A stretch of 63,519 nt of DNA, counting the filler, from Candidatus Desantisbacteria bacterium CG1_02_49_89 (GTDB lineage: Bacteria; Desantisbacteria; UBA1551): the NCBI GenBank assembly GCA_001871075.1. It is 3 parts of 3 records of this genome, joined end to end, with 100 filler letters (N's around TTAATTAATTAA, not from the genome) between each part and the next. Parts side by side here need not be neighbours in the genome. Positions count along the whole stretch, not along the records: positions 24,389 to 46,809 come from MNUP01000104.1; 2 more parts are not named here. One strand, given 5' to 3'. Positions 4,011 to 49,360 of this stretch are shown here, in pieces. Position 1 is the first letter of the stretch, and every line of letters starts with the position of its first letter. The notes beneath the pieces are model-generated. The model made no database searches. It was not told the DNA's origin and worked only from the letters and a program-made list of their open reading frames with translations. A program made the translations under genes and the position numbers.

Positions 4011-4229
4011 CTATTTTGCTGCTTCAGACGTAACTTCATGTTTTACAGGCAATAGCTCATCTAGGTTTAAATGCTTAGAAGCATCGAGAATCTCGATGCC
4101 CACAATCCTGTTGTCGTCTCCGATATCCAAGACGATATCATCTGAAATGCGTTTATTAACCACCTGTTGTTTTCTGCTGTCTAACCGAAGATAAAGCAAA
4201 TCAGTGTTTGAATTATATTGAATCTGCAT
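4011..4229 (-). CDS. DUF2283 domain protein (putative antitoxin)
   Basis: MQIQYNSNTDLLYLRL...IVLDI...IVGIEILDAS; paired with upstream DUF4258. Confidence 0.85.
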   Translation of the reverse strand: MQIQYNSNTDLLYLRLDSRKQQVVNKRISDDIVLDIGDDNRIVGIEILDASKHLNLDELLPVKHEVTSEAAK

Positions 4230-4494
4230 GTTCCCCCTCCCATTTTCCATAATAAACATAAACTGTAACAGTTATAACAATACCCTTTTCAAAAGTGTAA
4301 AATACCTCTACTCTTTTCTGTTCATAATATTTACCGCATCGATTCTGTTTGAAATCATATATTTTAGCTTTTCCTTTTCTATCATATTTGGCAGAGACGG
4401 AAAATCCAGTGTTAATTACTTCTCTTATTTCTTTTTCGTTTGTTCCTCTTTCTTAGGCACGCTCCAACGTATGCAAATCAATTTGGATTTCCAT
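4213..4494 (-). pseudogene. DUF4258 domain protein (putative toxin) with in-frame TAA at codon 14
   Basis: MEIQIDLHTLERA*ERGTNEKEIREVI...ITVTVYVYYGKW; TAA at 4453-4455; paralogue of 14210-14461. Confidence 0.8.
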
Positions 4495-10444: not shown

Positions 10445-10591
10445 TAAACCATCTCCCTTAAGTATAATGATTTAAGCCATTATATATGGCTTGCCATGAA
10501 CCCGAGCGTAGCGAGCGCAGCGAATTGAAAATTGAACAATAGACCGTCCCGATGTAAAATCGGGACTCTATTTTTCGCTGTGCGAAAAATC

Positions 10592-10792: not shown

Positions 10793-10868
10793 TGGAGGCG
10801 ACGAGCGGACTCGAACCGCTGAATCGAGGTTTTGCAGACCTCTCCCTTAGCCACTTGGGTACGTCGCC
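10793..10868 (-). tRNA. tRNA-Cys(GCA)
   Basis: GGCGACGTACCCAAGTGGCTAAGGGAGAGGTCTGCAAAACCTC...GGTTCGAGTCCGCTCGTCGCCTCCA. Confidence 0.95.
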
Positions 10869-11165: not shown

Positions 11166-11229
11166 TTGCAGACCTCTCCCCTCCACTAAAGATTTGGCGG
11201 GCAAGCCTTAGCCACTTGGGTACGTCGCC
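11166..11229 (-). pseudogene. Displaced 5' half (nt 1-37) of tRNA-Cys, interrupted by a 27-nt hairpin insert
   Basis: Identical to 10832-10868 apart from the insert at 11181-11207. Confidence 0.9.
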
Positions 11230-13955: not shown

Positions 13956-14198
13956 TTAGCCTGCACTAACAGATAATTGTGCGGTTTTACCTGTAAGTTT
14001 ATCAGTTAAAACAAATTTACCACCCTTTATAATCTGGAGTTGTTCGTTTGCATTCAGCAGTTCAATACCACAGATTTTTCCATCAGAGGAGATGTCAACA
14101 TTTAATTCATCACTTATTTTGATGGTATCAACTTCACCAGATTTCTCCCTAAACTTGATGTACGCGATATTATACTTGGAGTCATAACTTACTTCCAT
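13956..14198 (-). CDS. DUF2283 domain protein
   Basis: MEVSYDSKYNIAYIKF...LNVDI...GKICGIELLNA. Confidence 0.85.
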   Translation of the reverse strand: MEVSYDSKYNIAYIKFREKSGEVDTIKISDELNVDISSDGKICGIELLNANEQLQIIKGGKFVLTDKLTGKTAQLSVSAG

Positions 14199-24288: not shown

Positions 24289-24388
24289 NNNNNNNNNNNN
24301 NNNNNNNNNNNNNNNNNNNNNNNNNNNNNNNNTTAATTAATTAANNNNNNNNNNNNNNNNNNNNNNNNNNNNNNNNNNNNNNNNNNNN
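24289..24388. other. Artificial contig-joining spacer
   Basis: 44 N + TTAATTAATTAA (stops in all six frames) + 44 N; identical to 46810-46909. Confidence 0.95.
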
Positions 24389-25431: not shown

Positions 25432-25504
25432 NNNNNNNNNNNNNNNNNNNNNNNNNNNNCTTAAATCCATAAAAATAAAAAACTTTAGCAAAAATATGAT
25501 TTAA

Positions 25505-32147: not shown

Positions 32148-32288
32148 ATGCAGTCATGGGTCATGTGTCATGAGTCATGAGCAAAATTGGAATAAAAATA
32201 GTTCGAAGGAGGGAATATGTTACAAATTCAAAATGCAAAATGCAAAATGCAAAATGCCCCAAAGGGATCCATTCGGACAAAGGTCAAA

Positions 32289-33203
32289 ATGATTATTTTT
32301 ATTCTTGCCTTACACCTTACACTTTACACGTTACACGGTATTTGCGGGGGGCCAGGCACGACAGGAGCCGCATTCCTGAAACTGGGCGCAGGTTCTCGCC
32401 CGGTTGCCATGGGTGAGGCGTTCGTGGCAGCGGCAGACGATATAAACGCGCTTTACTGGAACCCGGCTGGCCTGGCGCTTGCAGACGGAAAACAGGTGAG
32501 CTTCGTCCATACAGAATGGTTCCAGTCGATCAGGTACGAGTACCTTGCTTATTGCCAGCAGGCTTTAGGCGGCACGATAGGGGCGGGGATTACCTACCTG
32601 TATATTGACGGCATAGAGAGGAGGGATGCGGCAGGAGTTCTGCTAAGTTCCGTGTCTATTCCGGCAAACGACCTTGCTGTTGCTGCCGCGTATTCAAAGT
32701 CCCTTTCAGAGAAGCTTGCTGTCGGGGCGTCGGTAAAATTCATAAACCAGCAGCTTGATGACCAATCCGCGATGGGTGTCGCGGCTGATATCGGCGTGCT
32801 TTTCAGGCCTTCTCCCGAAGGCCTGGCAGTAGGTGTTGCTTTGCAGAACCTGGGTTACCAGGCGGCTTTCGAGACAGTGGCAAGCCCGCTTCCCACAAAC
32901 CTTAAGGCAGGAATATCCCAGAAATCCGCTGACGGCAACTTTACTTTCGCGGCCGATTTCAATTATTCCCTTCTTGACAGTATCTGGGCTGCCGGCGCAG
33001 GCATAGAATATTGGTTCCATCCGGTGTTTTCAGTCAGGGCAGGTTACAAATACAACAGCGCGATAAACAGCACTTTGGGGGCACTCTCAGGCCTTACCTG
33101 CGGTGTCGGATTTAAGGTAAGCATGATGAATATTGACTACGCGCTTGTTCCTTACGGTGATTTAGGTTATACGCACAGAATAACCGTGGGGGCTAAGTTT
33201 TAA
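32289..33203 (+). CDS. PorV/PorQ-family outer-membrane barrel
   Basis: AFLKLGAGSRPVAMGEAFVA.ADD..ALYWNPAGL; DYALVPYGDLGYTHR. Confidence 0.88.
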   Translation: MIIFILALHLTLYTLHGICGGPGTTGAAFLKLGAGSRPVAMGEAFVAAADDINALYWNPAGLALADGKQVSFVHTEWFQSIRYEYLAYCQQALGGTIGAGITYLYIDGIERRDAAGVLLSSVSIPANDLAVAAAYSKSLSEKLAVGASVKFINQQLDDQSAMGVAADIGVLFRPSPEGLAVGVALQNLGYQAAFETVASPLPTNLKAGISQKSADGNFTFAADFNYSLLDSIWAAGAGIEYWFHPVFSVRAGYKYNSAINSTLGALSGLTCGVGFKVSMMNIDYALVPYGDLGYTHRITVGAKF

Positions 33204-33294
33204 CGTGGGATGGAGAATGCCCGGTGGAATCCGGCCTGCTCACCATCTCGCAGGCGTCGCTAAACCGTCCCGATTTATTCATCGGGACAGCGAC

Positions 33295-33348
33295 CCTTAT
33301 GGCGATCTGGGTTATACCCACCGGATAACAGTAGGCGCTAAGTTCTAA
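33295..33348 (+). pseudogene. Displaced synonymous copy of the last 18 codons of the PorV-like gene
   Basis: Encodes PYGDLGYTHRITVGAKF* like 33150-33203; 11 of 54 nt differ, all silent. Confidence 0.9.
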
Positions 33349-33482
33349 TTAGTGTCCAGTATCCAGTAACAGCAGTTTACAGAGTTTATAAAGTTTACAC
33401 AGTTTACAAGTGAAAGATAAATTTCGTGTAAATCGTGTGCAATCGTGTGGTTAAATTTTGTGGTTTTGCGGTGGTTTTTAAC

Positions 33483-33514
33483 AAGGGTCCTCTGAAAAGG
33501 GGACCCTTTTTATT
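33483..33514 (+). terminator. Rho-independent terminator
   Basis: AAGGGTCCTCT-GAAA-AGGGGACCCTT followed by T-run. Confidence 0.75.
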
Positions 33515-33584
33515 TCCTTATATTTATACACTCTTTCAGCAGATTTTCAACGGAGGGGAAAGGGGTAAAAAAGGGGATTTTCTC

Positions 33585-33613
33585 TTGACTTTCAACGTAA
33601 AATATGGTATAAT
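33585..33613 (+). promoter_or_regulatory. sigma70 promoter for the ppiC-surA-pdxA-rsmA operon
   Basis: TTGACT-17nt-TATAAT with extended -10 TG. Confidence 0.75.
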
Positions 33614-46809: not shown

Positions 46810-46909
46810 NNNNNNNNNNNNNNNNNNNNNNNNNNNNNNNNNNNNNNNNNNNNTTAATTAATTAANNNNNNNNNNNNNNNNNNNNNNNNNNNNNNNNNNN
46901 NNNNNNNNN
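46810..46909. other. Artificial contig-joining spacer
   Basis: 44 N + TTAATTAATTAA + 44 N. Confidence 0.95.
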
Positions 46910-49166: not shown

Positions 49167-49210
49167 TATTTATCTATTGATGTTCGCTTAATTGATTGAC
49201 TTCTTTTGAT

Positions 49211-49318
49211 GTCATTGCAACCCGCCCTTGTCCGCCAATTCTTATGGTGGAAGTATTCGTGGCGGGGAAGCAATCCCGTCGTTAAAAACGAGATTGCTTC
49301 GCTATTGCTCGCAAAGAC
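49211..49318. repeat. GTCATTGC...GCAATC...GATTGCTTCG...CTCGCAAAGAC palindromic element carrying nested CCCGCC..GGCGGG hairpins
   Basis: Same family at 46329-46373 (partial) and 60031-60120. Confidence 0.85.
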
Positions 49319-49360
49319 AACTGTCAAGATATTACGCAATACTCAGTAACTATATTATAT

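Follow-up and report, generated by a model that had tools for sequence, protein, structure and literature searches.

Two copies of a gene's 3' end that differ by silent changes are a classic mark of site-specific integration. Elements of this kind include e14 and phage 21, which integrate in icd, and integrative and conjugative elements (ICEs), which integrate in fda, guaA, rplL and other genes, and cis-mobilizable elements (CIMEs) are integrase-less derivatives flanked by attachment (att) sites. Small palindromic repeats at gene ends are also familiar, as in the repetitive extragenic palindromic (REP) sequences and bacterial interspersed mosaic elements (BIMEs) and in miniature inverted-repeat transposable elements (MITEs) that overlap 3' ends, such as the Coxiella QMITE. 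In the sections of the fungal mitochondrial report considered here, mobile endonuclease open reading frames (mORFs) that insert near a gene's 3' end and carry a foreign gene C-terminus are described from atp6 of Allomyces macrogynus, the prototype, and from atp6, atp9, cox2 and nad3 of Glomus sp., where the inserted and native atp6 ends are 63.5% identical in DNA and 91% in protein and the native one agrees with that of the sister species (PMC3630166). The parts used here of two reports on T4-like phages describe SegB, a free-standing GIY-YIG homing endonuclease in a tRNA cluster (PMC2330249), and mobE of phage T4, which mobilises the defunct I-TevIII by homing in trans (PMC2790892). Here we analyse a stretch of 63,519 nucleotides (nt), referred to as the window, which joins parts of three records of the assembly GCA_001871075.1 of Candidatus Desantisbacteria bacterium CG1_02_49_89, and in which a gene of the PorV family of outer-membrane beta-barrel proteins ends twice. 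The working end (copy A) is followed by a hairpin-rich spacer and then by a second, displaced end (copy B) that encodes the same peptide, and a homing-like replacement of the gene end is the explanation that we favour. The source is an uncultured groundwater bacterium, sampled in a metagenome that contains many co-occurring relatives.

Copies A and B form a 54-nt direct repeat with a start-to-start distance of 145 nt, and each translates to PYGDLGYTHRITVGAKF followed by a stop codon. Alignment and translation bear out what a first, sequence-only reading of this DNA had claimed: the copies differ at 11 of 54 nt (offsets 5, 8, 12, 14, 23, 27, 29, 35, 38, 41 and 50), every difference is silent, eight of the 17 codons are identical and the longest identical run is 8 nt (GGTTATAC). 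Among the 153 single changes possible in copy A, 36 are silent, and random draws of 11 substitutions, 200,000 in all, never gave a set that was silent throughout. Over the 30 nt that encode the family-invariant PYGDLGYTHR, the copies share 23 positions, which lies within the range of 19 to 27 found between different family members, so that at silent sites they are as distant from each other as separate genes. Silent-only differences combined with a distance of this size argue that both ends evolved for long as working gene ends in separate lineages, and the signature of protein-level selection previously proposed for both copies is thereby upheld. In a screen of 1,960 ends of open reading frames (ORFs) in the window and 97 loci, displaced ends were found solely in PorV-family genes, and within the window solely at the gene described here; the remaining matches were rejected as tandem repeats or spurious ORFs.

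The join is reproduced in independent assemblies. The same order of copy A, spacer and copy B stands in contigs of two other metagenome assemblies (L052 and L053), the first of which differs from the window by two mismatches in 7,057 nt. Moreover, a Logan contig of 386 nt from run X23 spans positions 33018-33403 with no differences, and in runs X9, X12 and X18 Logan contigs reach through the gene to 33263 and others run from 33270 or 33277 to 33403. The breaks of the latter contigs lie inside the conserved part of the spacer, where the summed depth is several-fold higher (37 and 30 in X9 vs about 8 in neighbouring bins) since this piece is also present in further contigs from these samples.

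The 91-nt spacer (33204-33294) folds as two hairpins at -62.3 kcal/mol (z = -3.4), a value equalled by none of 200 shuffles. In the second hairpin, the stem GTCCCGAT..ATCGGGAC is nested in GTCGCT..AGCGAC, and the closing stem AGG/CCT makes use of the first codon of copy B. The fold agrees with the proposal of a hairpin followed by a nested module that abuts the second copy. The module had also been singled out as a distinct type, "module B", and here the hairpin itself is confirmed, but it is one of a general terminator-like type, with a similar example at 10546-10566.

The comparison was extended to 15 metagenome loci that carry a gene 69-100% identical to that of the window, 14 of which reach the gene end, while L066 is cut before it. 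Displaced ends occur in five of the 15 (L052, L053, L060, L062 and L063) and in none of nine others, L066 being incomplete. The spacer exists in a short form of 91 nt (window, L052 and L053) and in a long form of about 153 nt (L060 and L062/L063), and every copy starts right behind the PorV stop codon (TAA CG) and ends in AGCGA(C/T) right before CCTTATGGCGAT, the head of the displaced end that is common to the loci. A fourth locus was recognised through P0001, a called protein of 43 amino acids (aa) in which a spacer-encoded peptide is followed by PYGDLGYTHRISLTAKF; protein searches with the two ORFs composed of spacer plus displaced end retrieved it as the sole further instance. The right junction is thus the same in the window, L060, L062 and P0001, in the last at the protein level only, and the left junction falls right behind the stop codon in both spacer forms.

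Within this layout the conservation of the spacer is uneven. The 53 nt at 33242-33294 match L060 at 100% and L062/L063 at 94%, in genes about 69% identical in protein, and a perfect match of this length amid such genes points to a short, recent and localised transfer. The inner 30 nt of hairpin 1 are 90% identical to L060; the letters of its outer stem differ between the short and the long form, each version pairing with its own partner, and L060 and L062 hold about 62 extra nt within the left part of the spacer. Across the versions of the module all 51 stem cells pair, and the three stem changes of L062, all C-to-T, give G-U pairs on the sense strand. These stem changes, which preserve pairing in three sequences with no double change, hint at a structure that may act at the RNA level.

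The piece at 33239-33297 also occurs in separate contigs, with five differences and in another context. Only one spacer copy is present in the 63.5-kb window, and among the 97 loci copies stand only behind PorV genes. A scan of the window against Rfam 15 at gathering thresholds returned only two tRNAs and left the spacer unmatched, and the spacers of L060 and L062 gave no Rfam 15 match at E values up to 1. A pattern search for the module gave 0 matches in viral_contigs, and no copies were found in five genomes behind distant loci, none of which is a close relative.

The displaced ends share their heads and differ in their tails. After the first 12-15 nt the tails are locus-specific: ITVGAKF in the window, ISKLAKF in L062, ISLSAKF in L060 and ISLTAKF in P0001. 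In L062 the displaced end, together with the sequence behind it, is similar to the working end of the undisturbed L061 and what follows there (44 of 54 nt), and the flank behind copy B in the window (TTAGTGTCCAGT..) is like that behind the working stop codon of the undisturbed L054 and L057. The family member nearest to copy B is L059 with 46 of 54 nt, and copy A matches L059 at 43 and L064 at 44 of 54 nt. With its native-like flank and its slightly closer match to the nearest member, copy B appears to be the resident old end, and copy A together with the spacer would be the incoming piece. That an incoming end displaced the old one, as the first reading had it, fits both this flank and the shared module at the same junction in four loci. 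The event in the window looks recent, since copy B is still undecayed; its counterparts in L060, L062 and P0001 show non-conservative changes and behave as pseudogenes.

End replacement has occurred more than once and with different breakpoints, because L060 and L062 hold three nested ends: a working end, a 52-nt C6/G6 hairpin, a 27-nt stump like the end of L055, the module, and a full displaced end. The other nested ends have varied breakpoints: the 27-nt stump breaks off behind CAC, and in L060 the break lies behind GATTTA. In L060 the displaced end is itself split by a 133-nt module that recurs at 49179-49346 of the window. In the window this 133-170-nt module (TTGACAG.., with hairpin arms of the GCAATGAC type) lies on the minus strand between a GH38 gene and hisH, and its counterpart inside the displaced PorV end, at L060 2478-2610, is 90-92% identical, which marks it as a mobile or recombining intergenic module common to different organisms or loci.

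The bodies of the PorV-family genes are mosaic as well, with blocks of 100% identity that switch abruptly to 60-90% (L053, L054, L057, L058, L059, L060 and L064). Specifically, L053 is identical to L064 for about its first 300 nt and to the window from there on, L059 and L060 are identical over 360 nt, and L054 equals L058 in mid-gene. Such blocks could reflect very frequent recombination between paralogues or strains, or short contigs that are partly chimeric. Other duplications were observed in more distant members of the family. A full PorV pair about 290 nt apart (L007 1661-3657 and L069 867-2863) is the sole tandem pair among 87 loci scanned. In two loci of about 28% identity (L048 4001-4480 and L092 2110-2350) it is the 5' gene end that is repeated, and the repeat takes in the signal peptide together with LKLGVG.RPVAMGEA, the first conserved motif. 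The two alternative starts of L092 lie 130 nt apart; their motif DNA is identical, their signal peptides are not. In L048 there are four or more tandem units, partly masked by N.

A second displaced copy in the window, at tRNA-Cys, was considered alongside the PorV end, and the parallel drawn earlier between the two holds. A displaced tRNA-Cys copy and an intact gene are both present. Two small hairpin modules break up the displaced copy, which stops short within the T arm, and the ~300 nt that separate it from the intact gene encode a GIY-YIG catalytic-domain protein of 80 aa with weak similarity to group I intron endonucleases and no recognisable DNA-binding domain. The insert is a complete small cassette that bears a nuclease gene and regenerates its target. 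Of the hairpin-linked, target-regenerating insertion that had been suggested, regeneration at tRNA-Cys stands, but nothing shows the hairpins to be the cause of insertion, and the GIY-YIG gene, which the first reading had missed, points to break-driven homing, not to hairpin-driven transposition. A tblastn search with this protein found no copy in the 97 loci, and a GIY-YIG match at L062 6184-6513 was rejected as a lead, being the start of UvrC. Besides the tRNA-Cys GIY-YIG gene, the scan of 62 of the 65 window ORFs of at least 80 aa brought up no nuclease, integrase or transposase.

Taken together, these observations lead us to give an even chance to a homing-like event in which a replacement end and its hairpin module were copied from a diverged allele by break-induced, homology-templated repair, with copy B as the resident end. 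The donor would have been an allele of the same PorV-family gene, silently saturated and encoding the same last beta-strand, and would have supplied the new 3' end (copy A) together with the double-hairpin module behind its own stop codon. Homology-templated repair would have copied this piece in front of the resident end, so that the gene remained whole and the old end was left 145 nt further down, in the 3' untranslated region (UTR). The resulting layout of end, module and old end, homologous on both sides, could then be copied into other family members at the same nucleotide, and copying of this kind would account for the identical junctions, the common heads of 12-15 nt and the locus-specific tails. 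The process most likely starts with a site-specific DNA break, as in homing, by a nuclease that would act in trans or has since been lost. A break-initiated event is preferred to unassisted recombination because the perfectly conserved tract is very short and lies in ~70%-identical genes, because the insertion point recurs and because the same window holds the tRNA-Cys GIY-YIG cassette. The direction of transfer, the break and the nuclease are all things that we infer.

Several observations weigh against this explanation. The spacer (91 nt, or ~153 nt in L060 and L062) contains no nuclease ORF between the copies, and no nuclease was found in or next to the spacer or among 25 neighbouring ORFs of nine close loci. 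The direction rests on a flank similarity of 20 of 22 nt, which includes a word repeat that is common in these genomes, and on 46 vs 43 matching nt. Copies A and B encode the same lineage-specific tail ITVGAKF, so the donor must be a close orthologue and not one of the ~70% family members compared; no such donor was found, nor was an undisturbed orthologue of the window's own gene. Between the short and long forms the spacer differs in its left half, as does the end joined to it, so that the mobile unit is no single fixed cassette, and the module is represented by three nucleotide versions, none of them changed on both sides of a pair. Of weaker import, the contigs of four runs contain no insert-free allele and no exact skip of 145 nt, contigs being prone to drop rare variants. 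Finally, ordinary recombination without a dedicated break could give the same picture.

This last point leads to the alternative that survives best, which we consider possible though distinctly less probable, namely a passive recombination scar in which a conversion tract overran the homology into the 3' flank of the donor and produced one illegitimate join, homologous recombination spread the layout with no nuclease or element taking part, and the hairpins are the donor's 3' UTR. The strong mosaicism of the PorV family is what such recombination would produce, the locus contains no ORF, the window ORFs scanned offer no recombinase or nuclease apart from that at tRNA-Cys, and the differing breakpoints of the other nested ends are in keeping with it. 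It is less easily reconciled with a junction that is exact to the nucleotide at either edge of the module in four loci whose displaced tails differ, or with 53 nt of 100% identity within ~70%-identical genes, given that unassisted recombination over short, diverged arms should be rare. If the locus is only such a scar, it represents ordinary, if tidy, mosaic evolution.

Quite unlikely, in our view, is the remnant of a site-specific integrative element (prophage, ICE or integrative and mobilizable element) that carried a replacement end and was deleted down to 91-153 nt in the manner of a CIME. The silently differing duplicate of a gene end is the very mark of such integration, and the right junction shared by four loci, with common displaced heads (CCTTATGGCGAT), is what an element-derived half of an attR site would give. 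No integrase was found in the scanned window ORFs or in the 25 neighbouring ORFs of the nine close loci, and in all three arrangements readable in DNA only 91-153 nt lie between the copies. A check for an att core yielded no identical run between A and B longer than 8 nt; the displaced heads share CCTTATGGCGAT, and the other nested ends break elsewhere. Moreover, the tails that an element would have brought are unlike one another (ITVGAKF vs ISLIAKF), that of the window equals its own host's tail, and the module had no match in viral_contigs. A literature search for integrase-type regeneration of 3' ends with silent differences found nothing.

The sequence-only reading had allowed for a full second PorV paralogue in relatives, which would make copy B the last piece of a nearly wholly deleted tandem copy whose end had diverged as a paralogue under selection. 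A tandem pair does exist at L007 and L069, at 41% identity, and yet a full second copy is absent from all 14 close loci (69-100% identity) with a complete gene end, evidence that the duplication is neither recent nor tandem and in line with the first reading, which had argued against a recent tandem event. The members of the L007 pair share nine of 14 terminal residues, as against 17 of 17 in A and B including the lineage-specific tail, and a deletion origin would need the same junction in four loci and two deleted paralogues each in L060 and L062. We regard this origin as very improbable.

Hardly credible is the translation of both ends, by a +1 slip at TTT_TAA_C that would read through the spacer into copy B. 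The frame at 33205-33348 is open, at the stop codon four T's run into AA, GGGGG lies 5 nt upstream, and P0001 shows the same open frame at another locus; thirty open codons are nevertheless expected by chance in about a quarter of cases (estimated as (61/64)^30), the long spacer puts its left part in another frame behind the 27-nt stump, pseudogene-like non-conservative changes or the 133-nt insertion mark the displaced ends of L060, L062 and P0001, and the stem changes keep pairing, not coding. An assembly chimera of two strains, conceivable in a metagenome with many co-occurring relatives where L053 itself resembles a hybrid of two lineages, is next to impossible given the same arrangement in L052 and L053 from other assemblies, the X23 contig that spans both copies without a difference, the X9, X12 and X18 contigs that cover both flanks, and the lack of any shared word beyond 8 nt long enough to mislead an assembler, which settles the concern about a strain chimera raised at the outset.

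Three further candidates were considered and rejected. A palindromic element derived from REP and its associated tyrosine transposase (RAYT) or from the insertion sequences IS200/IS605 does not fit a spacer that occurs once in 63.5 kb and only behind PorV in 97 loci, in a window where no transposase was found. A diversity-generating retroelement does not fit 11 differences that span all four bases and are all silent, and no reverse transcriptase was found in the window. A target-site duplication was likewise rejected.

The host gene belongs to the family without being a named orthologue, as it scores 198.8 bits against the NCBIfam model NF033709 (PorV_fam; cut-off 90, E 1.6e-58), above the curated cut-off, and falls below the cut-offs of both equivalog models (PorV 107.7, cut-off 250; PorQ 132.5, cut-off 220); the Pfam matches to PorV and UPF0164 are both weak. 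Of the two candidate starts, 32217 has a strong AAGGAGG 5 nt upstream, and 32289 is where the homologues begin. Upstream lie genes for a 630-aa barrel protein and a FecR-like protein, and downstream two SurA-like genes; the next promoter-like site (TTGACT-17-TATAAT, 11 of 12) stands at 33585-33613, ahead of a SurA-like gene. Neighbourhoods of family members are unrelated between loci, and in six related loci the PorV-family gene stands directly 3' of a gene for an NHL-repeat protein that bears a type IX secretion signal domain (CHU_C). The terminator listed in Table 1 is the sole canonical one after the gene, so that copy A, spacer and copy B would share one transcript, and the spacer, copy B and the short word arrays should lie within the 3' UTR. 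Tandem arrays of 7- to 10-base words, at 32152-32181, 32224-32257, 32308-32336 and 33369-33449, flank the gene and enter it, one of them (AAATGCA x 4.9) lying between the two candidate start codons, within what may be an N-terminal extension. Elsewhere in the window, two small DUF2283 ORFs on the minus strand (4014-4259 and 13959-14198) stand amid rows of housekeeping genes (the arg operon; near tgt). Runs of N at 24289-24388, 25432-25459 and 46810-46909 interrupt two ORFs, both of which were left out of the family scans.

Table 1. Coordinates in the window of the PorV-family gene, its duplicated end and spacer, and the tRNA-Cys insert.
Feature	Position	Strand	Remarks
PorV/PorQ-family outer-membrane beta-barrel gene	32217..33203	+	alternative start 32289
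Copy A, working last 17 codons and stop	33150..33203	+	contiguous and in frame with the gene; spacer module directly 3'
Left part of spacer, hairpin 1	33204..33241	+	from fold; begins right after the stop (TAA CG..)
Conserved 3' hairpin module	33242..33297	+	nested stems GTCGCT/AGCGAC and GTCCCGAT/ATCGGGAC; closing AGG/CCT
Copy B, displaced untranslated gene end	33295..33348	+	+1 frame relative to the gene
Remaining 3' untranslated region	33349..33482	+	9-mer array 33369-33408, 10-mer array 33424-33449
Intrinsic terminator	33483..33518	+	11-pair stem and T run
Intact tRNA-Cys	10793-10868	minus	
GIY-YIG ORF, 80 aa	10878-11117	minus	Pfam E 1.3e-16
Displaced tRNA-Cys copy	positions 1-24 at 11206-11229; anticodon arm 11166-11180; T-arm piece	minus	upstream of the intact gene

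If the homing-like replacement of the gene end holds, homing-type elements with a spare gene end would reach chromosomal genes of uncultivated bacteria, beyond organelles and phages, and could persist as tiny, gene-less hairpin modules invisible to annotation pipelines. Such events would move short coding stretches between diverged lineages and so create mosaic surface-protein genes, and they would offer PorV paralogues, in a secretion-related family, a concrete route to exchange the barrel-closing strand. The stranded, untranslated ends can in turn be misread as ORFs, P0001 being one that was called as a protein. A bolder extension, which we consider unlikely as it stands, sees in the module a bacterial chromosomal homing cassette that has no gene of its own. 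Minimal GIY-YIG nucleases of ~80 aa, encoded at other sites of the genome, would cut conserved sequence in genes that are essential or useful, here the codons of the last PorV beta-strand and elsewhere tRNA arms, and the cassette would be copied in with a spare, silently recoded end by which the host gene stays functional. Were this true, gene ends would be shuffled between paralogues and species, which would explain the extreme mosaicism of this surface-protein family, and the system would be a free-living bacterial counterpart of the mitochondrial mORFs.

Compared with the described systems, the locus combines features that are otherwise found apart. With REP/BIME and QMITE it shares GC-rich hairpins directly behind stop codons and mosaic combinations of modules; those repeats bring no copy of a gene end, whereas the PorV module, in the sequences examined, occurs once in 63.5 kb and only behind PorV-family genes. 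As with e14 and the ICEs, a duplicated end flanks the insert, the insert supplies the working copy and the differences are mostly silent; unlike them, the PorV locus has a tiny insert with no integrase found, variable nested breakpoints and replacement tails that are not constant.

In the phage T4 systems, as far as the parts of the reports used here describe them, a site-specific break leads to one-way copying of an element and its flank, and an element without a nuclease can be mobilised by the nuclease of another, as would be needed at the PorV gene (PMC2330249, PMC2790892). The tRNA-Cys cassette further resembles SegB in that a GIY-YIG gene stands beside a tRNA, although its 80-aa product is far smaller than SegB-type enzymes and is without a recognisable DNA-binding domain. 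The phage cases described there leave no displaced gene end as a rule.

In the mORFs, going by the sections of the report considered here (PMC3630166), the inserted C-terminus likewise becomes the working end and the native end is displaced downstream, the copies have diverged in DNA and little or not at all in protein, the event is interpreted as a transfer from a diverged source and several genes are affected. The PorV locus has the corresponding features of an insert-supplied working end, copies diverged in DNA and conserved in protein, and the same insertion point in independent targets. The mORFs hold a LAGLIDADG or GIY-YIG ORF of ~0.4-1 kb between the copies, biochemically shown to drive mobility (PMC3630166), where the PorV locus has a non-coding double hairpin of 91-153 nt, and it lies on a bacterial chromosome and in a multi-copy family of outer-membrane proteins. 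With no nuclease ORF between its copies, the PorV case would work like the mORF class without being a member of it, and the scar at its 3' end may represent a small, gene-less bacterial counterpart of the selfish elements that replace gene ends in fungal mitochondria.

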